From an uncultured Nitrospiraceae bacterium (GTDB lineage: Bacteria > Nitrospirota > Nitrospiria > Nitrospirales > Nitrospiraceae), in contig CAVPLT010000002.1 of NCBI GenBank assembly GCA_963706325.1, positions 96,001 through 160,000 of the forward strand: 64,000 nucleotides of DNA, written 5' to 3'. The notes under the pieces are model-generated. The model was not told the origin of the DNA. It did no database searches and worked only from the letters and a program-made list of their open reading frames with translations. Positions within the stretch are counted from its first letter, which is position 1. Each line of letters opens with the position of its first letter. Shown here one piece after another: positions 2,731 to 58,825 of this stretch. A program made the translations under genes and the position numbers.

Positions 2731-3478
2731 GGCTTCTCCGCTGAAAGGGTGGGTTGTTTGGGAATCCACTCGCGGGTAGGTTCACCGTGTGTAGTGGTTC
2801 CCATGCCCAACCATACCGAGGCAAAGGGGTAGTGAGAATACCGTGGAGGAGGGGATGGCGCACTAACCAAAGATGGGGGGTGGGAATAGATTCAAATTCG
2901 AGAGACGAGTAGCAATAAGCAATGTTATAAACTTCAATATGTTAGTGCATATAATTCGCGCAAAAGATTAATTATTGCTATCGCAACTCCACCCGATGTC
3001 TGAGATACGTAGAGATAAGGTCTTGGGTGAAGGCAGATCCCGCCAGGAGGATGCCGGGACCTCTTGCTGCCTTGGGTGGGCACAACCAAAGCAGGCACCT
3101 TCACCCTTTCTCAGTCAACCATGCCACCAGGCGATCTCGCAAGTGCGTAGTTGTTCGGAGTCCACGTCCCCTCTGCCGAGAAGGACAGGGAGTGGAGGCG
3201 GTTCGAAATGGTCCATTGCTCCCGAAAAATCGATCTCCACTGCGGGCATCGGAGCACAGGGAGATTCCATCACATGGAAGCTGATAGCGACGCCATTCCA
3301 ATGACGACCATGCGATCCAGGCGCGAATAGACTCTGTGGGCAATTGATGGCGTATGATTCGGTTCTTCCGCTGGGGCCAGAATGTTCCTGAGGCACTTTT
3401 CAATCGTTTCCTCTGTGTCCTTCAGCCGCCCGTCATGCGTATTCGTTTCCTAGGTTCGCCCTGCCTGTGGTGCAGCCC

Positions 3479-4558
3479 CTACTTCGGTAATTTCGGGACG
3501 GTGATCTTCAGCGGTGCACCTGTGAGGGACTTTAAGAACTCTACCAAGTCGACCTTTTCTTCCGGTTGCAATCCTAACGGCTTGGTGAATTCACTGAGGT
3601 GAGGGTTTTTGCCGCCACCCTGATCAAAAAAATCGATGACTTCCTCCAGGGTTTTAAACGCGCCGTCGTGCATGTACGGAGCCGTCTCCTCAATGCTACG
3701 CAACGTGGGCGTCTTGAAGGCACCCTTGTCGCGCTCCGCTCGTGTCACCATATACCGCCCAAGGTCTTCCTTCAGCGGGCCGACCTGTGGCACTCCCAGA
3801 TTATGAAACTGATTATCGGTCAAGTTCGGACCACTATGGCAGAGAATGCAGCGCGCCTTGCCTTTGAACAGAGCCATGCCACGCACGGCCGAATCAGTCA
3901 TGGCATCGGCCGCGCCCATCACGTACCTGTCAAACGCGCTATTCTGAGACACGATCGTGCGTTCAAAGGCGGCGATCGCTTCCGCGATATGCTGCAAGCT
4001 GGCCCCGCCTCCAAACACGAGATGAAATTGCCGGCGATAGGCCGCAATTTTTGCGATTTTTGGCACGACCGTATTATGCTGCTCCGCCATCTCCACGGGA
4101 TTATGAATCGGGCCGATCGCCTGCTCTTCAAGTGAACCGGCGCGGCCATCCCAAAATTGGAGCGGTATGAACCCAGTGTTATAGACGGTTGGTGCTTGTC
4201 TACCGCCTGCCGTGCCGAACGCGCCGATCGAAACCTGGCGGGCATCGGCAAACCCCGTGCCCGGGTTGTGGCAAAACGCACAGGAGACGGTATTGTTCTT
4301 GGAGAGCCGCGTGTCGAAATAGAGCTGCTTTCCTAGCTCCACCTTTTCTGAGTAGCTCAAGTTTGTCGGTGGGGTCGGCACCTGCGTCGGCATCGGTCCA
4401 ATGTCCGGCACTGTGATGCCGTCGAGTGTGACGGTGCCGTGTGGGGCATAGTCGGACGGAGAGGCCGACGTCAGTGAACTATCAATGAGCAGGCAAACGG
4501 CCAGCAGTAGCATCGACCTACGAAAAATCGAAGGGACTAAGAGTCGCTTAATGAGCAT
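3479..4558 (-). CDS. Di-haem cytochrome c peroxidase (CCP/MauG family)
   Basis: Signal peptide, LGKQLYFDTRLS, haem motifs CAFCH and CILCH, QFWDGRA, FKTPTLR, APYMHDG; AAGGAG SD. Confidence 0.93.
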   Translation of the reverse strand: MLIKRLLVPSIFRRSMLLLAVCLLIDSSLTSASPSDYAPHGTVTLDGITVPDIGPMPTQVPTPPTNLSYSEKVELGKQLYFDTRLSKNNTVSCAFCHNPGTGFADARQVSIGAFGTAGGRQAPTVYNTGFIPLQFWDGRAGSLEEQAIGPIHNPVEMAEQHNTVVPKIAKIAAYRRQFHLVFGGGASLQHIAEAIAAFERTIVSQNSAFDRYVMGAADAMTDSAVRGMALFKGKARCILCHSGPNLTDNQFHNLGVPQVGPLKEDLGRYMVTRAERDKGAFKTPTLRSIEETAPYMHDGAFKTLEEVIDFFDQGGGKNPHLSEFTKPLGLQPEEKVDLVEFLKSLTGAPLKITVPKLPK

Positions 4559-5578
4559 GACATCTCCTTTGGTAGACTATGGGGCACCTGCCGCTCAACC
4601 GAGCAATTTGGGCGGCGCCAGGGGCGGACGAGAGCATCGACGACATCCACAACTTCACTCTATAAAGCCTGCTCGATGCTGCGAGGCATCTTTAAAAGTG
4701 GGCATTCCCTAGCATCAAACTGACCGGATTGTCTAATGATTTCACGGGCGCACAACGAGCGGAAAAACCGGTGTGCCTGATTGTTGACAGGGCGGTGCCT
4801 TAGTCATGCAAGCTCGTAATGCAATCCTGCCATTGGATTGTCCAGGGGCTTTCTGCGACGCGGGTTCCAGCTCTTTGACATTCCACTGCAGGCGCAGACC
4901 CGTGCCAACGCACACCACTCGCTTGTCATTTGAAAGTATAGGCAGCCCGCGAAGGAAAGTGCATCTCCGGCATAACCTTCGATGCGGAGCCCGCATCGTC
5001 GTCCTCATAGCAGAACACGAGACAGGCCAACATTGCGTCGCAGACGCAAGTCTCGCCGAGGTCCTGCCGGAGTGCCATAACGCGTCGAACTAGGTCACGC
5101 CCCGTCACCATCCCGACGAGTGCATAGCCGAAGTTCACCCTCCTGGCTGGAAGATTATGTGGCTTGTCCCTTCGAGCGGGCACTGCGATAGAAGCATGAA
5201 GGGTGGCACTTCAGCCGTCGGCCTCATCATTTCCTTGAGTCATGGCATTGTCCTCCGAAGGTCCGTAAAGGGCTTGAGGAGCTTGTTGAAGAGAGGTCGC
5301 TCTCTCATCGTGTGTGATGCTGACAATACGCGCCATACTACGGAGATGTCCTCGGTACCCGCACCAGGCGAAGCTCCACTAGGAGAACTCGGGAGTTGCC
5401 AGCGGGCTATTTCACACCATGCCCTGTGCTCTGCAAGTCGAATGGTAGTCCTTTGCCAGGCAGCCATAGTGTTAAGCGAAGGATCCGGGGAGGAGAACAA
5501 CGTCTCTCAGGAACTCAATAGACGTCGATCAGTCGCACGTGGATAGAGTGGAAGCACGAACACGCGCCCTGCGCGGTA

Positions 5579-5824
5579 TCATTTTCCTATGTCCCGATCG
5601 ATGTGAAACGCAATCTTCTTAGCCCCCTGTCGTAAGCCCTCTGCCCACAGCCCTTGCATCTCCCCCGTGCCATGTTGCTCTGCCACGGACTTGCAATCAT
5701 GCACCACATTACGCAATGCCGTTTCCAGCAAAGCATATTGGTCCCCCTCTTCTTGCCTGGCAAAATTTGGCTCGTGATGGAATAAGTCGGTATAGAGCCT
5801 GGTGGCTCGTTGGTAGATCATCAT
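5579..5824 (-). CDS. Hypothetical protein
   Basis: 81-aa ORF MMIYQRATRLYTDLFHHEP... with protein-like composition; no family recognised. Confidence 0.45.
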   Translation of the reverse strand: MMIYQRATRLYTDLFHHEPNFARQEEGDQYALLETALRNVVHDCKSVAEQHGTGEMQGLWAEGLRQGAKKIAFHIDRDIGK

Positions 5825-6382
5825 ACGACTATTGCCCTTTTTACTTCCGTGTGGAGGCTTAGCCCGCGTTCGATAGTGGCTGAGTAGTACAACTTCAAAA
5901 TCCATGTAATGAGCAGTCTCATGTCGGCTCCGCTGGCTGATGAAGCATTTCCCCTGTCTCTTAAAAGATAATCGTAGGAGGTTAGACACCCATTAAGGAA
6001 AGCTTAGAAGCTGCTCATGCGACCTAGGGAGCGCAGTGAATCGATGGTGCGTAACGGCACGGTTAGCAGATCGAAGGCCGGTGCGGATATGCTTGCCGCT
6101 AGATGACTCCAGGCGAGCCTGGTTACAGATATGGTTACAATTTCAGCTGAGTGTCACCGTTAAAAAAGGCGGAGGGGTACGGAGAGATTTTTGTCACGGG
6201 GAAAGGGGTTGGCCTTTGTGCATGGCAAGTCTACAGTTCCCGCTCAGATATCGCGATAAAAAGCTTCGATGATATCTCTGTGCCTTTGAGAGCCACGATC
6301 TCAACTAGGTACATCGCTAGCCGTACCTTATGTGAGAATGCGGTACAACCTCCCTAATAACTGCTTAGCAATGGAGGGGGAT

Positions 6383-6558
6383 ATGCCAGTTCGACAATTA
6401 ATGCCACTGCAAAGACCTGTGCGCATTTAGGTTGTTCGTGTGAGGTGGAAGGTGATTATCCATTCTGTAGCCCCGAATGCGCTTCCACAGCGAAGGTGAC
6501 CACTGAGGCTGTGACGTGTCCATGTCGTCACCCAGCATGTAAAACCGTCCAAGTGTAA
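6383..6558 (+). CDS. Metallothionein-like Cys/His-rich peptide; 1-nt frameshift right after the start
   Basis: GGAGG then ATG at 6383. The frame from 6391 reads STINATAKTCAHLGCSCEVEGDYPFCSPECASTAKVTTEAVTCPCRHPACKTVQV* (8 Cys, 2 His). Confidence 0.65.
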
Positions 6559-6632
6559 TTTACGGGTCCACATTCGTGAAATGGGTTGTTCACTTCAACA
6601 GCTTGGCTTGCATCGGCCTGCTTAATTGGATG

Positions 6633-7037
6633 TTACAGCAGCTTCCAATACTCTCGCATTCGCTCAACAACGGCACGGTCGTGTTCGCTCATTTTCAACT
6701 CATGTGTTTCGTCAGGGGAAAACCACCCCATTGCCTGTCCTTCTCCTAAATGGAGTGGTTGATCGTGATAGCGTTCCACAAACACATATTTCGTGTTCAG
6801 ATGCTCTCCATCTCGCACTGTCTGTGACATGAGAAAGTAGGGGTTTCGTACTTGGTAAGACAATTCCTCTAGAGCTTCTCGCTCCAGTGCTTCCCTTGGG
6901 CTCTCTTCAGCTTCGATACCTCCGCCAAAGAATGCCCAGTGATTTGGCAGAGTAAATGCGTCGTGCGTCCGATGTTGAAGGAGTATCTGCCCTGTGGAGG
7001 TATAGAGAATCAATAGAGACACATCTCGTACAGCCAT
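6633..7037 (-). CDS. NUDIX hydrolase
   Basis: Nudix box GGGIEAEESPREALEREALEELSY, preceded by ILLQHR...WAFFG. Confidence 0.9.
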   Translation of the reverse strand: MAVRDVSLLILYTSTGQILLQHRTHDAFTLPNHWAFFGGGIEAEESPREALEREALEELSYQVRNPYFLMSQTVRDGEHLNTKYVFVERYHDQPLHLGEGQAMGWFSPDETHELKMSEHDRAVVERMREYWKLL

Positions 7038-7177
7038 TCGTAACCATAACCTATAGACCGTGGGTAGGTGAGGGAAATCTCTGTTACAGTCGTCAAGCAC
7101 CTGCCTCAGCTTAACTACCTTGCTGAGAAAGGTTATTCAAGGTATGGTCCTTACGAATCGCAACCCAGGAGGTGCAC

Positions 7178-46198: not shown

Positions 46199-49100
46199 TT
46201 AGGGATAGGTCGCGAGGAGTCTTTCGACGGCCTGTAGGTGTGTTTCTCCTTCCTTGGCCTTGAACTGTCGTCGACAGGCAGCACAGAGGCGGAGGCGACC
46301 GGCGATCGAACGCACGTCCCGATCTTCATTGTAAAAAAATGGACAGTCGGCAGGCCCGACACCACGGCGATGGGGCGTGAGGTCTGCCACGACCGCCGCC
46401 GCCAAGTGGGCCATCATCCGTTCGACGGTGCAGTCCTTCTCGTTCAGGTGTTCCAGCACCCCGAAGGTCGAGGCCACGAACAGCGCGTCCCGTCGCCAGA
46501 AATAGAGGTTCCTCGCCGTCCTGCTCCTGAGCGGAAAATTGATCATACACACGAGCTTGTCCACACCCAATTCCTTGGGCTTGGCCTTCAGTCGATCGTA
46601 GAGTGTTTCCGCGACGACAAATGCCTGGTTATTATCTTGTTCGCGTCGCCAGGTTCCGATCGGCGCCGGGAATGACACGGTCTCGAAGGAGTAGATGTTC
46701 TGCGCTTGCGTAAGACGATCACAAATTTCCGGCAAGTGAGGAATCATGCGATGGGCGTTCCACATGCCGATTTTGATCCGGTCTTGCATCGCGCGCCGGC
46801 GTCGCCGTACCGTGGCGGTGCGTGTTCGCTCATACTCGGCTGCCGCCCGAGGCAGACAGAGGCGCTGAGCCGGATTCCGCGCAAACACCACGGGCACGGC
46901 CCAATCGATGGCCTCTCCAGAAATCGAATAATTGACTGCCACACGTGCCTCACGGGCGGCGTCGCCGATGGTTTGGCCCATGGCTAGGGCCCAGTAGAAA
47001 TGGCGCGAAAAGGAGGTCGCCGAGACATCCAAAACCGGATACTGGTTGGCGACGACAGCCGGCACGCCACCGGCGATCAGAGCCTGAGCAACGCCGCGGC
47101 TGAAATCCTCCCGTCCCCCTCGCCCGGTCTCGCAGGCATTCAGGCAGACCAGGCGAATGCCGCGCCTGCATAGGATCTGCCGGAGGGTCGAAGAATCCAA
47201 CTCCTGCACGCCGCCATCCGCGTTCTCAAAGACGAGGTACCCGCAGTCTTCCTGCTCCCGATATTCACCATGACCGATGAAATGCAGAATATCGAACGGT
47301 TCACTGGAGGACTCAAGCGTCCGATGCAACAGCTCGGGCGTGGCATCAAGCAGGAGTTGGACTTCAGCCAGATTCGCATCAAGCAAGCGGCGGAATCCGC
47401 TACGGATAACATCAGCTTCCTCCTCAACAGAAAGTTTGGCGAGCCCCAGCGGTTGGGCGACGACCACGAGAATACGCATGGGACCGCCCCGGGCTGGAAT
47501 ACGTTCGGCGGGAATAGCGGTGAGGACATTGCGCGTGAAGTTCACTTCTTCGAGCGCAAGGAACGTCCGGCGATCGGGATCATAGACGAATTCCCAGGCT
47601 TGGTCGGCAATCCAATCGATATCCGAGGTAAAGATGAGGTTGAGCCGTTGACTCGTCTGTTCGGATCGCGCCGCATCGTAAAGTCGCCGTACTTGGCCTG
47701 GAAACAGCGCCTTGAACAAGGCTACTCCGAATTGTTGGAGATCATGCTCACCAGGCAGAGCCGGAAACTTTGGATTGCCCTGAATGTACCCCTGAATATG
47801 GTCCTGTGCGGTCTTGATCTGCTGCCATTGAACATCGCCTTTGTCGCCCCTCGATCGTGTGTGTGATGAGCCCTTCTCGGGCCGGGTCCGCAAAGTCTCC
47901 ATCACACGCGCGTTCCGGAAGGTGGCGATAAGCTCCGCTACCTGGTCATCCGGATGCGAATCGACCAGGGCAATCTGAAACACATCATCCGGTTCGGGAC
48001 TTTGAGTGAGGGAGACTGCGACGGGGAGGATTCGAGCGGCCGGCACTGCCTGGGCTGTCGCCATGGCTGGAGCCGGCGAGGACGTGGCCGCCATGCTGGG
48101 CCGCCCGTCTACAGGAACGGCGCTGCGGCGCCTACCGGACGGCAAGTCTTGCTCGATGACAATCGATGTAGCCGGATGCGACTGTCCGCGCAGGGCGCGA
48201 ACCAAAAAATCCACCGTGCCGGGATCCTCAAAGAAGTTCACGTGATTGACCGGCTTGTGCTGCGAGAGGTTCCCGCCTAATCCAAAGCAACCGACGCGAT
48301 CTCCTGGAATCGTGACCGCAGCCCCGCTCCCCGCGTCCACACGCCAGCCGCCTTCCGTCGGCACGACGAGATCGTTGGCCGACGTAAAAAATAGATCGGC
48401 CCCCGCGTCGATGATGCGCTGCAGTACGGTGGTGTCGGGCTCGAAGTTCGCGACCAGCGCCGAATAAGCTTGGTTCGAAGGGCCCGGCGACGCCTGCAAG
48501 AGGCGAATGATATCGCCCTTGTTATCCATCGAGGCCAGGCCGGGTAATCCGCCGACGATGCGATGGGCGATCCACGACAGGGCTTCACTGACGAATTCCA
48601 TGCCTGTTGTGAACGGGTTCTCGGGGAACAGCTCCAATACATTAGACAGCCAGTTGGTGTACTGAGTGACATGGTCCGGCGAAGCCAGGGGTGTCCCTTC
48701 ATTCGGACTCGCGACGAGCACGGCTCGGCCAATGACAAATCGATCGGCCAGCGGACCAAAAAGATCCCGGCGTTCAACCAGGTGGCGCAGGACCAAGCCG
48801 CCGCGCGAATGCGTGATGACGTCAAAGGTCGTCGGGCGATCGGGCAAGGCGTCGAGCAACATCCGTACATTATCCTGGGGGGTACGGCTCAGGGTGAAAT
48901 GATCGAAGCCATAGATGCGATTGCCGTATACGTCCTGCAGTTCTTCAAAGAATCCTTTGCCGTTGCTGCCCTGTGTAAGCGCCAGCCCGTGAAAGGCCGC
49001 TTTCGTGCTGGAAAACGTGCCGTGAAGAAAGAGGAGATTCCGTTCAGATGTAGTTAGCGTCTTCAGATCTGCGGCGGGCAGGTTCGGTTCTTCACCGAGT

Positions 49101-49651
49101 CCCGCGGCGGTTACGGCTAGCCACCCTTCACGTTGTTTTTTGAGTTTCCACGTTGCGGTTTCCCAGAGTAACGCAAGCTTCGAGAGGGCAAAGTCGGCGA
49201 TCTTGCCCGCGATCTTAAGGACCACGGTTTTAATAGCCGCGCTGATAAACCCGCGGCGGCCATCCGCGTCGACGAGAGGAGCCGCCGGCACGGGAATCAG
49301 AAAGCGGTAAATTCTTCGCGCGCCTCGCCGCATGCCGCGGCGAGCGGGTTCCGTCGGCATATGAAAGCGAATTGCCCCGGAGGCGTACCGTGTCATCACC
49401 ACGTATGCTTCATCGGGGCTGCCTTCCACGTCCAGGGTGAGCGGGGCCGGCGCCGCTTCGCCCCGCCGTGCCTTGGGCGTGGCCACAAGAGTCTGTTCGA
49501 CCTCCCAGCGGCTGGTTGCCGTCAGATGGGCTACGAAGGGATCCGGTGCTGCCGCTGCTGCGCGGCGCCCTGCGCGAACCGGCCCTGCAGCACGCACGTC
49601 CCATCCTTCCGCCGTCGACCAGGTGACCTTGCCTGATTTTTTCTGCGCCAT
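46199..49651 (-). CDS. Alpha/beta-hydrolase + CHAT (caspase-like) + zincin-like fusion protein
   Basis: LHGTFSS, THSRGG, NDLVVP and NH (lipase triad); ILHFIGHG and CLNACETG (CHAT dyad); C-terminal AHL...H...CPF...LCAAC. Confidence 0.85.
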   Translation of the reverse strand: MAQKKSGKVTWSTAEGWDVRAAGPVRAGRRAAAAAPDPFVAHLTATSRWEVEQTLVATPKARRGEAAPAPLTLDVEGSPDEAYVVMTRYASGAIRFHMPTEPARRGMRRGARRIYRFLIPVPAAPLVDADGRRGFISAAIKTVVLKIAGKIADFALSKLALLWETATWKLKKQREGWLAVTAAGLGEEPNLPAADLKTLTTSERNLLFLHGTFSSTKAAFHGLALTQGSNGKGFFEELQDVYGNRIYGFDHFTLSRTPQDNVRMLLDALPDRPTTFDVITHSRGGLVLRHLVERRDLFGPLADRFVIGRAVLVASPNEGTPLASPDHVTQYTNWLSNVLELFPENPFTTGMEFVSEALSWIAHRIVGGLPGLASMDNKGDIIRLLQASPGPSNQAYSALVANFEPDTTVLQRIIDAGADLFFTSANDLVVPTEGGWRVDAGSGAAVTIPGDRVGCFGLGGNLSQHKPVNHVNFFEDPGTVDFLVRALRGQSHPATSIVIEQDLPSGRRRSAVPVDGRPSMAATSSPAPAMATAQAVPAARILPVAVSLTQSPEPDDVFQIALVDSHPDDQVAELIATFRNARVMETLRTRPEKGSSHTRSRGDKGDVQWQQIKTAQDHIQGYIQGNPKFPALPGEHDLQQFGVALFKALFPGQVRRLYDAARSEQTSQRLNLIFTSDIDWIADQAWEFVYDPDRRTFLALEEVNFTRNVLTAIPAERIPARGGPMRILVVVAQPLGLAKLSVEEEADVIRSGFRRLLDANLAEVQLLLDATPELLHRTLESSSEPFDILHFIGHGEYREQEDCGYLVFENADGGVQELDSSTLRQILCRRGIRLVCLNACETGRGGREDFSRGVAQALIAGGVPAVVANQYPVLDVSATSFSRHFYWALAMGQTIGDAAREARVAVNYSISGEAIDWAVPVVFARNPAQRLCLPRAAAEYERTRTATVRRRRRAMQDRIKIGMWNAHRMIPHLPEICDRLTQAQNIYSFETVSFPAPIGTWRREQDNNQAFVVAETLYDRLKAKPKELGVDKLVCMINFPLRSRTARNLYFWRRDALFVASTFGVLEHLNEKDCTVERMMAHLAAAVVADLTPHRRGVGPADCPFFYNEDRDVRSIAGRLRLCAACRRQFKAKEGETHLQAVERLLATYP

Positions 49652-54864: not shown

Positions 54865-55974
54865 TCAGAGGGATACAGTACCAATAGGGTCCGCGCTAGT
54901 GAGCTTTTGAGCGCTCGCGTCTTCCTGATCGCAGCTCTGCATCATCATTTGACGGACCTCCGTCGGCGAAAAACGCGCGGCAGCGGCGTTGACCTGTTGA
55001 TACCAATTGAGGACCGGCTCATCGTCATTGGCTACGGCCTGTTCGTAGACAAGACGGCACAGCGTCAGGAACGCGGCATAATCACGAGACAGCCATGATG
55101 CGGCCATGTCCGGGAGGCGTTGGTTCTTGATATTGCCCCAAGACCAGGCGCGAGGAAATCCGTACTGCAGGGGGGAGACGGCTCCGCTGGTTTCGAGGAC
55201 TAGGGGGGCAAGGACATCTGCCACGGTCTGCTCTCCGCAGACTGATGCCTCTCGGACGAAGACCCGTGTCGGATGTTCGAGCAAAGCGGGAACCGTCGCG
55301 AGATCGATCTGCACATCCATGAGGTCTTGATACAACTCTCGAATTCGAACCGCCTCGAACACGGCTGCTGCGTTCTCCTCGCCATCGGGCAATGACCCAT
55401 CTAGTGTGCGAGTGGCCCTGCCGACCGGTTCAAGCGGGTGCAGTTGCAGGAGTTTCGCGCCTTGTTCCGCTGCGAATTGCGCGACCCAGTCCAGCTCATG
55501 GATGTTGTGAAACGTGAGTGTAAAGATGAAGCCGAATGGAACGCCTGAGCGACGCAACCCTTCCAACCGCTCGCACATGTCCTCAAACGCTCGCGGGGAA
55601 CCGCGCATGAAATTGTGCGAATCGGGAACACCATCGAGGCTGATTGCGACGAGGTCGCAATCAGCCGCTAAGATGTCCAGCTGCCGTTGATCGAGCAACA
55701 TCCCGTTAGTCGTGACAGTGGTGACCAGACCCGCAACATGCGCGCAGTGAAGCAGCCTGCCGAGCGCAGGATACAAGAGCGGTTCGCCACCGGACACCGA
55801 TATGACCCTGTACCCGATTGTGGCCGCATCAGCCACGACGCCACGCAGCAGCTCGATGTCCAGCTGTTCCGTCACCGCCGGTCCGGAGTCGGAATAACAA
55901 TGCAGACACTGCAGATTGCAGCGTCTGCCGGGGTGCACTTGCAACGTGGGGAATTTTCCAGCCGGCCCTTGCAT
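54865..55974 (-). CDS. Radical SAM enzyme (no SPASM Cys cluster)
   Basis: CNLQCLHC, SGGEPLL, TTNG, ISLDG; ATG 7 nt after the stop of the small upstream gene. Confidence 0.92.
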   Translation of the reverse strand: MQGPAGKFPTLQVHPGRRCNLQCLHCYSDSGPAVTEQLDIELLRGVVADAATIGYRVISVSGGEPLLYPALGRLLHCAHVAGLVTTVTTNGMLLDQRQLDILAADCDLVAISLDGVPDSHNFMRGSPRAFEDMCERLEGLRRSGVPFGFIFTLTFHNIHELDWVAQFAAEQGAKLLQLHPLEPVGRATRTLDGSLPDGEENAAAVFEAVRIRELYQDLMDVQIDLATVPALLEHPTRVFVREASVCGEQTVADVLAPLVLETSGAVSPLQYGFPRAWSWGNIKNQRLPDMAASWLSRDYAAFLTLCRLVYEQAVANDDEPVLNWYQQVNAAAARFSPTEVRQMMMQSCDQEDASAQKLTSADPIGTVSL

Positions 55975-55981
55975 GAAATGT

Positions 55982-56257
55982 CTATCCTCGTAACGTGAAC
56001 TTGATCTGAGCGATGTTAGGACGCGGAGTGCCATGGATCAAGATATTCAGGTCGCGCAATTCCTTCAACTTCGTCAAGGCCGCCACGTTGGCTTTGAAGT
56101 TCGCCACGCCGGTTTGCACGGTTCCGGTGATCACGTCCGGATGGGGAGTGCCAAGCTCGTGCCAATCGATGATCTTGACACCCTTCAGTTTACTCTTGAT
56201 CGCTGTTGCTGCCGTTCCGATCTTCGCTGACCCACGCCCGCTTGGTTGCTTCGGCAT
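55982..56257 (-). CDS. 91-aa protein with an internal 40-aa duplication; putative radical SAM substrate/precursor
   Basis: AAGGAGGT SD; KLK...GTPHPD (aa 23-41) aligns with KLK...GTPRPN (aa 63-81). Confidence 0.8.
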   Translation of the reverse strand: MPKQPSGRGSAKIGTAATAIKSKLKGVKIIDWHELGTPHPDVITGTVQTGVANFKANVAALTKLKELRDLNILIHGTPRPNIAQIKFTLRG

Positions 56258-56572
56258 CAGAAACCTCCTTGTGTGTGTAATACCTGTCCACGCTGATCCG
56301 CTTGTCAGCGGTCCGAGGCACCATACCTCTTCCTGATTCAAACGACAAGTATTTCCGCTCACCAGCAGAAGGAGTGACGGAACACTCCTTAGGGGGGCGA
56401 CGTTCTCATATACGTAATCATAACATCGGTGATGGCGTTCGCGGCGGTTTGTCCCGCCTCGCTCATGCAAAAAAATGCGGCATCGTATAGCCACACTCGT
56501 AAAACAAGGAGGCAAGAGATCAGCAGTGGACGGGTTGGTTGAATCAGAGACCGACGAACCGACGCAGATCGA

Positions 56573-57352
56573 TTACGGCTCGATCTGCTTACCCCAATGC
56601 TTCAAGAACGGAGCAATGGTATCGATTGGAATTGGGAAGATGGTGGTGGAGTTTTTTTCTGCCGCAATCTCAACCAACGTCTGCAGATAGCGGAGCTGCA
56701 GCGCAGCAGGGTTACGACTGATGACGTCGGCGGCGTCCGCCAGGCGCCGGGAGGCTTCGAATTCACCTTCGGCATGGATGACCTTCGCGCGACGTTCGCG
56801 CTCCGCTTCCGCTTGACGCGCGATGGCTCGTTGCATTTCCTGCGGCAGGTCCACGTTCTTCACTTCCACCGCGCTGACCTTGATTCCCCAGGGCTCCGTC
56901 TGTTGATCGATGATGCGTTGAAGGTCGGCGTTGATCTGTTCCCGTTTCGAGAGCAAATCGTCGAGCTGGCTCTGTCCGAGCACGCTGCGAAGCGTTGTCT
57001 GCGACATCATGGAGGTGGCGTAGAGGTAGTCTTCGACTTGGATGATGGCCCGCTCGGGATCCACCACCCGGAAATAGATGACGGCGTTCACCTTGACGGT
57101 GACGTTGTCTCTCGTGATGACGTCCTGATGCGGCACGTCCATCGTCACAGTTCGCAAGCTGACGCGCACAAGCTTGTCGATGAACGGGATGATGACCACG
57201 ACACCGGGACCGTTCCCACCGACGAGTCCACGGGCCAGCCTGCCCCATCGGAAGATCACGCCCCGTTCGTATTCCCGGAGGACGTTGAACCCCATCAGGA
57301 AGAGCACCATCACGAGAAACAGGAGCGCAAACGGACTCGCGAGCGGACCCAT
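56573..57352 (-). CDS. SPFH/band 7 (slipin) protein
   Basis: [38 protein letters not shown]. Confidence 0.96.
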
Positions 57353-57353
57353 A

Positions 57354-58685
57354 TCAGACCCCTTTCTTCGGCACGGGTTTCACATGCAAACGTAAACCAT
57401 CGAGACGCGTGACTTCGGCTTCGTCGCCTGGCTGGAGCGGTTGCTCGCTGATGGCCTCCCAGAGTTCGCCTCGGACGGCCAGTTGACCCTGGGGAGTCAG
57501 CGCTGTTTTGACGATCCCCACCAGACCGACCATTTCTTCGCGGCCGGTCACCGGCGGGCGCCGCATCGCCTTCACTCCCATTCCGACCATTAAGAAGGAA
57601 AAGGCGGCGGCGAGTGCGACGACCGGCAGGATGACCGACCAGGAAATTTGTAGAAACTCCACATCGGTTTTGATCAGCATCACCGATCCGAGGAGCATCG
57701 AGATGATCCCGCCGATGGCCAGCAAGCCGAAGCTCGTGATGGTGGCTTCCAGGATGAGGAAGACGATTCCGAGGAGAAACAACAGCACGCCCGCGTAGTT
57801 CACCGGCAGCGACTGTAAGGAATAAAACGCCAGAATCAGGCTGATGGCGCCGACCATGCCGGGCAGAATCGCTCCTGGGTTATATAGCTCGGCAATGATT
57901 CCGACGGTGCCGATCGTCATGAGCAAATAGGCGATGTTCGGATCGCTGAGCGTTTTGAGGAATTCCAGACGAAGGCTCATGGGAAATTCGCGCAATCTCG
58001 CGCTCGCGGTGTGCAGCACCTTCGCGCCGGTTGAGAGAGGGATTGAACGGCCGTCGAGCTGCTTCAGCAGCGCCGGAAGATCGTCGGCAATTATGTCGAT
58101 GATGTTCAGCTTCAGCGCTTCCCGTTCCGTCACGGAGAGGCTCTTGCGCACGGCATCCTCTGCCCAGGCTACGTTACGTCCACGCTGCTCGGCGATTGTT
58201 TTGATGTAGGCCACAGAATCGTTTTCCACTTTCTCCTTCATCGTTTTATCCATCTCGGCGCCGCCCATCACGACCGGGTGGGCCGCGCCGATGTTTGTGC
58301 CGGGAGCCATCGCCGCCACATGTGCCGCCATGGTGAGAAATACGCCGGCAGAGGCGGCCCGTCCGCTGGGCGGCGACACATAGACGACCACTGGAATGGT
58401 TGAGGCGGTGATGTCCTTGATCATGAGCCGCATGGAGGTATCGAGGCCGCCGGGCGTATTCAGGCGGAGAATCAACGCCTCGGCGTCGCCCTCTTGAGCG
58501 GACTGGAGCGCATCGTGGAAGTATTCAGCGGAGACGGGGGTAATGACCCCGTCGTACGTAGCAACCAATAGGAATGAGTCGGCTCGCGCGTCAGTAGGGT
58601 CTCCGAACAGAGCGGTGAGAAACGCAATCGTTACGATGCTGAGGTGGAAGACTGATAGCTGAGGACGATGTCTCGGGACAGGCAT
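57354..58685 (-). CDS. nfeD: NfeD membrane-bound serine protease
   Basis: [28 protein letters not shown] region and a C-terminal OB fold; adjacent to the SPFH gene. Confidence 0.94.
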
Positions 58686-58825
58686 GGAAGTGTCTCTCCC
58701 ACAAGACCGAGGCTTAGAGTGGCGGCCGTAGGAGGTCAGCATACGAGCTGCCCTAGAGCCAGTCAAGGAAGCGAGGAGAGGCTGATAAGTGGCGTCGAAC
58801 GAACTGAAGTCAGTGGGGGCCGGTC

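Follow-up and report, generated by a model that had tools for sequence, protein, structure and literature searches.

A conserved gene pair of a radical SAM enzyme and a small G-x-P-x-P-D/E loop protein as a candidate protein-modification cassette

Analysis of a 64,000-nt stretch of the genome of an uncultured Nitrospiraceae bacterium (assembly GCA_963706325.1, contig CAVPLT010000002.1, positions 96,001 to 160,000; called the window below) revealed a two-gene unit consisting of a small gene, encoding a 91-residue protein with two G-x-P-x-P-D/E loops, and a downstream gene encoding a radical S-adenosylmethionine (SAM) enzyme. Small gene and enzyme form a conserved unit that is found in at least seven bacterial phyla as well as in archaea, and the pair is best explained as a self-contained radical SAM post-translational modification cassette. 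Judged from sequence, the loop protein is very probably the substrate of the enzyme. This role is supported because the loop motif is duplicated, is located in exposed hairpin loops of the predicted structure, is the only loop left in partners with a single loop and has been transplanted into a Nostoc peptide. The layout of a small gene next to a radical SAM gene is of a known type and the pair itself is unnamed.

Conservation and spread of the gene pair

The unit comprises the following features:

55982-56257, minus strand: small open reading frame (ORF; P0001), 91 amino acids, putative substrate protein without Cys and without Tyr
56263..56270, minus strand: Shine-Dalgarno sequence AAGGAGGT, 5 nt ahead of the small-gene ATG
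54865-55974, minus strand: radical SAM gene (P0002), 369 amino acids

The ATG of the radical SAM gene is located 7 nt past the TAG stop of the small ORF, and the two genes are bordered by non-coding DNA, which extends 315 nt to the SPFH gene upstream and about 850 nt to the histidine kinase gene downstream. A preliminary description, made from the letters of this DNA alone, had reported the same spacing and Shine-Dalgarno sequence and had called the pair a two-gene minus-strand unit, a view that stands despite NfeD and SPFH genes one to two genes upstream. AAGGAG(G) is kept at the Shine-Dalgarno position in 12/12 Nitrospira loci compared; promoter and terminator scans of the locus gave no signal above shuffled sequence.

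The 91-residue ORF is a genuine gene. Its ratio of nonsynonymous to synonymous substitution rates is 0.048-0.152 against 11 Nitrospira orthologues, and parts of it are covered without any mismatch by contigs from 4/4 RNA libraries (4 studies), one contig extending 33 nt beyond the stop. The RNA runs were picked using this stretch and only contigs were used, so that these matches indicate presence in RNA libraries and neither level nor strand; most of the radical SAM gene lies outside the contig coverage, which has no bearing on its expression. An antisense ORF of 107 residues (56013-56336) was rejected as a shadow frame, with substitutions following the minus-strand frame (2312 at third, 818 at first and 189 at second positions).

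That homologues of the small protein be linked to the radical SAM gene had been set beforehand as a test of the preliminary description, and they are. The enzyme has 13 close loci in Nitrospira and other Nitrospirota (76-94% identity), all of which carry the small gene directly upstream, with differing surroundings. On the basis of these relatives, the window was assigned to Nitrospira. Of 61 related genomes, 14 have the small gene and 15 have the enzyme; the surplus copy, in a Nitrospira relative, is a pseudogene (L218, G008:C3:41500-47000) with two stops, a HisKA-bearing stretch having taken the place of the small gene and of the enzyme gene's 5' end. A metagenome scan with the back-translated pattern [VI]-F-P-x-G-I-P-x-P-D returned at least 120 loci. 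Among the matches listed, 46 match the small-protein family profile and 39 of 42 firm family members have the enzyme 8-248 nt downstream on the same strand. The three strong family matches without enzyme have at most 181 nt of DNA downstream, four weak profile matches without enzyme (E>9e-4) were treated as chance, and the enzyme was found at 0/74 of the listed non-family loci. It should be noted that the profile contained the small proteins of these same loci, which inflates the scores and leaves the adjacency unaffected. Genome searches starting from the enzyme likewise found a partner upstream at 4/4 in-family loci (L185, L220, L221 and L222), specifically, two canonical partners and two retaining loop 2 alone.

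The pair was reached in Nitrospirota, Acidobacteriota, Actinomycetota, Pseudomonadota, Chloroflexota and Planctomycetota, the phyla being assigned by centre-genome title, as well as in Nostoc and in a Nitrososphaeraceae archaeon, which carries it as the consecutive accessions HTH20776/HTH20777 (L087). Within each genome draw, the family is rare (0-3 per 150-400 genomes). The small-protein profile found 1/251 (phylum of G061), 1/251 (G062) and 0/251 (G064), while the enzyme profile found 1/401 (G065), 1/251 (G064, a sister-clade enzyme), 1/151 (G1216), 0/151 (G1220) and 3/151 (G063, one being sister clade); these counts are lower bounds, only part of the first-look candidates having been scored per genome. 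The window's genome has no second family member. Searches of plasmids gave no match to the Nostoc-type enzyme at 1e-30 and searches of phages none at 1e-15; 25 viral-contig loci encode generic radical SAM enzymes of 20-36% identity. Among the neighbours scanned (sets of 33 and 38 proteins), there is no recurring peptidase, transporter or recognition element (RRE) gene of the type found with peptides that are synthesized on ribosomes and modified after translation (RiPPs), and no constant neighbour gene beyond the pair. Partner and enzyme distances are correlated (Spearman 0.45, 2/2000 permutations, 21 pairs), which reflects shared descent and is no proof of binding.

The small protein is predicted to be a duplicated fold with two conserved loops

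The following elements were assigned to the small protein:

56132..56197, minus strand: repeat unit 1, residues 21-42 (shuffle test and HHalign)
56012..56077, minus strand: repeat unit 2, residues 61-82 (shuffle test and HHalign)
56135..56152, minus strand: loop 1, G36-T-P-H-P-D41, joining strands 27-35 and 42-50 as a hairpin
56015..56032, minus strand: loop 2, G76-T-P-R-P-N81, joining strands 67-75 and 82-90 as a hairpin
56228..56236, minus strand: R8-G9-S10 motif near the N-terminus, in a tail modelled with low confidence; possible recognition element

The internal repeat, already noticed in the preliminary description, exceeds chance. Residues 21-42 and 61-82 are identical at 7/22 positions, the score of one half against the other was equalled by 6/5000 shuffles, and HHalign aligns the two halves of the family profile with P=97% and E=2.9e-11. 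Neither the small protein nor any of 37 distant homologues matches a Pfam, NCBIfam or PADLOC family, and a match of the homologues to AMEP412 (E 0.012, 2/37 members) was rejected as chance. The protein has 93 close homologues, and querying 1.84 billion representatives with a profile yielded 53 matches at E<=0.001, three of which are long phage-tail-like proteins and were discarded as spurious.

In the AlphaFold model (pLDDT 76, 31 sequences), a helix (15-23), two strands (27-35 and 42-50), a second helix (51-62) and two further strands (67-75 and 82-90) follow each other. The small protein is thus predicted to consist of a duplicated alpha-beta-beta unit with a circularly permuted ferredoxin-like fold, and the partner in Nitrospira appears to be folded. 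The predicted fold resembles that of periplasmic domains of PilO, EpsL and EpsM, likewise an alpha-beta-beta repeat (Z 8.7, rmsd 3.5, 78 aligned residues; best Foldseek E 2.3e-3). In contrast to these, the small protein has no membrane anchor and no pilus context and shares 14% identity with them; the Z value of 8.7 may mean that only a common arrangement is shared, and no function is implied. Neither a signal peptide nor an export gene is in evidence for the Nitrospira small protein, and a cytoplasmic modified protein is therefore the default reading.

Conservation was counted in 61 homologues of <70% identity, taken from protein searches only so that the motif scan cannot bias the counts. 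Loop 1 has G in 61/61, P(+2) in 60/61, P(+4) in 48/61 and D/E(+5) in 55/61 proteins, while loop 2 has G in 60/61, P(+2) in 58/61, P(+4) in 53/61 and D/E(+5) in 52/61. Pooled over both loops, Gly is present in 121/122, P(+2) in 118/122, P(+4) in 101/122 and an acidic residue at +5 in 107/122, so the two G-x-P-x-P stretches singled out in the preliminary description are a conserved feature. Gly is followed by Q/T/I/K in loop 1 and by I/T/Q in loop 2, where Ile is the commonest (33/61). Cys is absent from 55/61 partner proteins and Tyr is found at -1 in 13/122 loops. A separate subfamily (L076, L100, L143, L163, L165 and L166) reads G-I-C-[LIV]-D in loop 1 and V-F-P-W-G-I-P-x-P-D in loop 2.

One part of the preliminary description did not hold up, namely that the W or H preceding each loop belongs to the modification site. 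W32 sits at -4 of loop 1 and H75 at -1 of loop 2, out of register, and ahead of loop 2, position -4 is aromatic in 0/61 proteins, position -3 in 35/61 and position -1 in 16/61. As there is neither a register nor a conserved aromatic at loop 2, W32 and H75 are unlikely targets, and a cyclophane role for them was rejected on the loop 2 counts. Outside the loops, [RKST]GS is found inside the first 45 residues of 50/61 homologues and is retained in the one-loop partners of L186 and L226, making R8-G9-S10 a possible recognition element.

The radical SAM enzyme has lost the auxiliary-cluster ligands of its closest relatives

PF04055 is the sole Pfam domain of the enzyme above cut-off, and no RRE was found. 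Its best NCBIfam match reaches 93.7 bits where the cut-off is 500, scores remain far below the cut-off of every cofactor-biosynthesis model, and a 33-member enzyme alignment matches the same models weakly. ESM Atlas clusters of the enzyme have automatic names only, with PF04055 present and SPASM absent or at 13%. By these sequence comparisons, the enzyme belongs to no characterised family, in agreement with the preliminary description, which had not recognised one. For the heme and heme d1 enzymes NirJ, AhbC and AhbD, scores are 93.7 vs 500, 82.2 vs 650 and 77 vs 500 bits, and no tetrapyrrole gene is present among the neighbours scanned. The pair is not described in the open literature searched, outside of which were subscription journals, bioRxiv supplements and RadicalSAM.org. 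An Aro-Xaa-Asn motif is mentioned in a radical SAM mapping paper (PMC9062424), the text and two supplementary files of which contain neither GIP nor Nitrospira.

Enzyme conservation was assessed in 23 full-length non-redundant members of <80% identity:

55897..55941, minus strand: Q12-x-H14-P15 followed by CxxxCxxC (C19, C23, C26); Q12 22/23, H14 22/23, three Cys 23/23
55438..55446, minus strand: Q177-x-H179 on strand 175-180, candidate active-site residues; Q177 22/23, H179 22/23
55303..55305, minus strand: D224, family-specific candidate proton donor or base; 23/23, Thr in both sister-clade enzymes
55168..55197, minus strand: Cys-free SPASM-type hairpin LETSGAVSPL (260-269), which matches the anSME hairpin in alignment, other residues standing in for both flanking Cys

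The closest solved relatives by sequence are SkfB (E 4.8e-26) and anSME, and the closest folds to the enzyme model (pLDDT 84) are SkfB (TM score 0.59), DesII, anSME and SuiB, with TM scores of about 0.55-0.6. SPASM/twitch maturases (SkfB, anSME, PqqE, SuiB and ChlB) are thus the best sequence and fold matches; as in these, a CxxxCxxC radical SAM core is encoded beside a small gene, and the hairpin is retained. In contrast, the auxiliary-cluster Cys, including that of the PC following the beta-hairpin, are all lost. Further differences from SPASM/twitch systems are partners that are mostly Cys-free and have no fixed aromatic, and scores far below every curated cut-off.

In alignment, residues 256-309 correspond to the SPASM hairpin of anSME, and residue 269 is L/V/F/M/I/S/A and never Cys. 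The six Cys of the enzyme outside CxxxCxxC make no cluster motif, C19, C23 and C26 are the only invariant Cys, and no other Cys column exceeds 65%; C306, located in a helix of the model, is found in 15/23 members, whereas the enzyme of L135 holds three Cys in all. The alignment to anSME and the 23 members thus bear out the preliminary description, which had noted CxxxCxxC, the hairpin without Cys and the lack of an auxiliary cluster motif. Based on their positions on core strands of the model, Q12, H14, Q177, H179 and D224 would line the active site. The enzyme tree is mostly unresolved (16/22 inner branches open).

The loop motif is found outside the folded partner

Locus L097 encodes a 67-residue peptide followed by an enzyme 45% identical to the Nitrospira enzyme. 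The peptide consists of an acidic leader ending in ELEALKGG and a core with G-I-P twice, the second time as V-F-P-Y-G-I-P-Y-P-D, and the core motif corresponds to the family's loop 2 (P=95%). Members of this cluster are encoded by consecutive accessions in several Nostoc genomes, PHJ61406/PHJ61405 being one such pair. No library family was found for the Nostoc precursor and no peptidase is encoded within 3.5 kb in L097; the peptide is probably cleaved after GG. As the motif outlasts the loss of the whole fold and sits in a leader-core peptide, it is best read as the target of the enzyme. The preliminary description had favoured a folded protein over a cleaved leader-core peptide, which is upheld for the Nitrospira member and does not extend to the family, given the Nostoc leader-core form and the one-loop forms.

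One-loop partners and a sister clade were found at the following loci:

L186, 7587-7997, minus strand: one-loop partner, RGS and loop 2 kept, loop 1 replaced
L226, 5502-5834, plus strand: one-loop partner, RGS and loop 2 kept, loop 1 replaced
L219, minus strand: sister clade, partner 6782-7093, enzyme 5576-6730
L227, plus strand: sister clade, partner 5534-5836, enzyme 5954-7132

Both one-loop partners bear a [WR]-C-G-[TN] stretch. Because loop 2 is the one that they retain, it is probably the main site of action in the small protein. The sister-clade enzymes (E 1e-61 to 1e-67) are without QxHP and D224 and contain an additional C-x-x-F-x-C-x-G-x-x-C stretch, and their upstream partner, of about 100 residues, carries a D-D-x-[FY]-G...G-P-R-P motif and has no NCBIfam or Pfam family. 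L219 and L227 represent a second undescribed gene pair, and a sister clade with another Gly/Pro partner suggests a larger undescribed group.

Instead of being the substrate, the small protein could be an obligatory subunit or adaptor, comparable to the Y protein of spliceases or to PqqD, with a small molecule, a nucleotide (as for viperin) or another protein as the enzyme's target. We consider this rather improbable. The Nostoc motif occurs without the fold and behind a double-glycine-type leader, no constant pathway or defence genes are present among the neighbours scanned, and the genome contains no additional family member, all of which argue against an adaptor, whereas the compact folded domain predicted for the Nitrospira partner would suit one. 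Viperin itself carries N-x-H before its Cys motif, which the Q-x-H of the enzyme resembles, and the N-terminal half of the enzyme weakly matches viperin models. This match is limited in extent, specifically, to residues 14-122 for viperin (61.9 bits, far under the cut-off of 180) and to residues 13-125 for PADLOC pVip (E 7.5e-19), and does not cover the full length. Small Y proteins do work with spliceases, according to PMC11414181, which also describes that spliceases cut out tyramine at XYG. Spliceases (PlpX, PcpX and RhaX) resemble the enzyme in being backbone-directed radical SAM enzymes that act beside Gly and are able to act on proteins, and some loops of the family, including the Nostoc core, read P-Y-G like splicease sites. 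In contrast to splicease substrates, P0001 contains no Tyr and few loops of the family have one at -1.

Proposed mechanism and alternative chemistries

With the loop protein as substrate, we hypothesize that the enzyme holds a single [4Fe-4S] cluster and splits SAM, as expected for an enzyme of the radical SAM family, and that the resulting 5'-deoxyadenosyl radical removes a hydrogen atom from the G-x-P-x-P-D/E hairpin loop. A redox-neutral change of the backbone is the most likely outcome because no auxiliary cluster is available to accept an electron and only Gly, two Pro and the acidic residue are conserved around the variable x. C-alpha epimerisation of the residue following Gly, converting x (T37 and T77 here) to the D-form, would be the likeliest single chemistry and is put forward tentatively. 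Quenching of the substrate radical would fall to a non-canonical donor, either the semi-conserved C306 or reduction and protonation via D224, H14 and H179. In Nitrospira, the product would stay a modified folded protein with loop 2 as the main site, while in Nostoc the same loop would be modified within a leader-core peptide. The genes, their linkage, the conservation of the motif, the predicted fold and the missing Cys are established here, and from these we infer the substrate role of the small protein as well as the site, chemistry and processing. A complex prediction (enzyme 1-340 with SAM, 4Fe-4S and small protein) gave a score of 0.00, which speaks neither for nor against binding.

Known peptide epimerases are the natural comparison. 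The proteusin epimerases PoyD, OspD, AvpD and PlpD as well as EpeE/YydG are peptide-directed radical SAM enzymes, as proposed here. Proteusin epimerases hold the radical SAM cluster only and act on Ile/Val-type residues, according to PMC8326336, and with three invariant Cys the enzyme appears to be a single-cluster enzyme as well. In contrast to the proteusin epimerases, there is no invariant fourth Cys in this enzyme family to serve as hydrogen donor, library scans matched neither an RRE nor an NHLP- or Nif11-type precursor, and homology of the enzyme to EpeE is confined to the first 109 profile positions. The partner likewise differs from those of proteusin epimerases and EpeE in being a folded protein with a fixed G-x-P-x-P-D motif.

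Several points weigh against epimerisation. The main objection is that no Cys beyond CxxxCxxC is invariant here, as seen above for C306 and L135, whereas every peptide epimerase characterised so far relies on a critical Cys (PMC8326336). The invariant Gly may be a mere turn residue of the hairpin and x may serve recognition rather than being the target, and the two conserved His and the Asp suit an oxidation with a base equally well. In favour of epimerisation, PMC13012085 reports that EpeE C223S still makes the epimerised product, more slowly, and Ile, which epimerases commonly target, leads among the residues at x of loop 2. A single-cluster enzyme and a loop with Ile, Thr, Gln or Lys at its centre are best accounted for by C-alpha epimerisation.

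Oxidation of the same substrate (-2 Da per loop), which we regard as somewhat unlikely, would lead to alpha,beta-desaturation of Pro or x or to a C-C or C-O cross-link among Gly, Pro and the +5 Asp/Glu, with the conserved His/His/Asp as base and the electron returned through the single cluster. It would account for two near-invariant Pro followed by an acid as well as for the conservation of H14, H179 and D224, and the closest folds include oxidative peptide maturases (SkfB, anSME and SuiB) along with DesII, an enzyme that functions without an auxiliary cluster. On the other hand, the usual cross-link partners are missing, most partner proteins being Cys-free and loop 2 having no conserved aromatic. 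Triceptide or cyclophane synthases are defined by a conserved aromatic-x-x motif together with a SPASM enzyme, and the family has neither this aromatic at loop 2 nor SPASM Cys. Auxiliary clusters are moreover described as essential for modification by C-C cyclases in PMC8326336, and the enzyme family is without ligands for them.

A further alternative, which appears decidedly improbable, places the reaction on the invariant Gly itself. A glycyl radical, generated as by the enzyme that activates pyruvate formate-lyase (PFL-AE), would be quenched by oxygen or water, resulting in alpha-hydroxylation or in site-specific backbone scission with a C-terminal amide and a glyoxylyl fragment as products. 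In line with this, Gly is the only practically invariant residue of the loops, and for PFL-AE and GrcA/YfiD, too, a radical SAM enzyme acts on a Gly in the loop of a folded partner. Invariance of Gly is equally demanded by a tight turn, however, and unlike the PFL-AE and GrcA systems, the pair shows no RVSG-type motif and no glycyl-radical enzyme gene among the neighbours scanned. The enzyme is of SPASM-type descent, with no PFL-activase model among its best 25 matches, and hosts such as Nitrospira and Nostoc live with oxygen. PMC10665898 describes abstraction of the Gly C-alpha hydrogen from a loop peptide by PFL-AE, which favours a Gly target, and an exposed glycyl radical as unprotected, which does not. 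The probability remaining beyond the readings named here falls to other chemistry.

Neighbouring genes and further observations

An operon encoding an NfeD-family membrane protein and an SPFH/Band 7 protein (window 56573-58766, minus strand) is located directly upstream of the pair; the same neighbour is found at L006, L189 and L190 and not in the other Nitrospira flanks compared. Elsewhere in the window, 46199-49651 (minus strand) encodes a protein of 1150 residues with DUF7379 and CHAT domains. At 3/21 distant loci, neighbours are copper-related by Pfam name, specifically, a PpoB2 copper chaperone with DUF1326, a tyrosinase and a copper amine oxidase; DUF7868, which we take to be tyrosinase-associated, is encoded beside the pair at a fourth (the loci being L064, L100, L143 and L088). 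The second neighbour set (38 proteins) contains no copper-related neighbours. Upstream of the Planctomycetota pair (L226:812-2593, 3468-5051), a second radical SAM/SPASM enzyme is found that is PapB-like (201 vs a cut-off of 340), together with a 141-residue partner without a named family and a DUF6345 gene. Upstream of an Acidobacteria pair (L063:83-900; L187:380-2800), a short unit recurs in the translations, marking a CRISPR-like array candidate.

Significance

The pair appears to work like a two-gene radical SAM system for RiPP or protein modification, yet it belongs to none of the families compared. Action of a RiPP-like radical SAM enzyme on a protein has precedent in CrpC/CrpA (PMC13692751). 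Known peptide-modifying radical SAM enzymes rely on auxiliary Fe-S clusters for cross-links or on a catalytic Cys for epimerisation. As this family has neither as an invariant feature, the radical cycle must end in another way. The pair may possibly, though this is far from assured, be the founding member of a widespread single-cluster, Cys-independent class of radical SAM protein-editing enzymes with an undescribed backbone reaction on G-x-P-x-P-D hairpins, be it epimerisation without Cys, desaturation or cross-linking of proline, or scission directed at Gly. It spans several bacterial phyla and archaea of the ammonia-oxidiser family, two genes suffice, and a version from a cultured organism exists in Nostoc. 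A six-residue loop that is accepted in a folded protein as well as in a linear peptide would be of use to protein engineers, and it could act as a portable tag for modification if it has indeed been exchanged between cleaved leader peptides and a folded scaffold.

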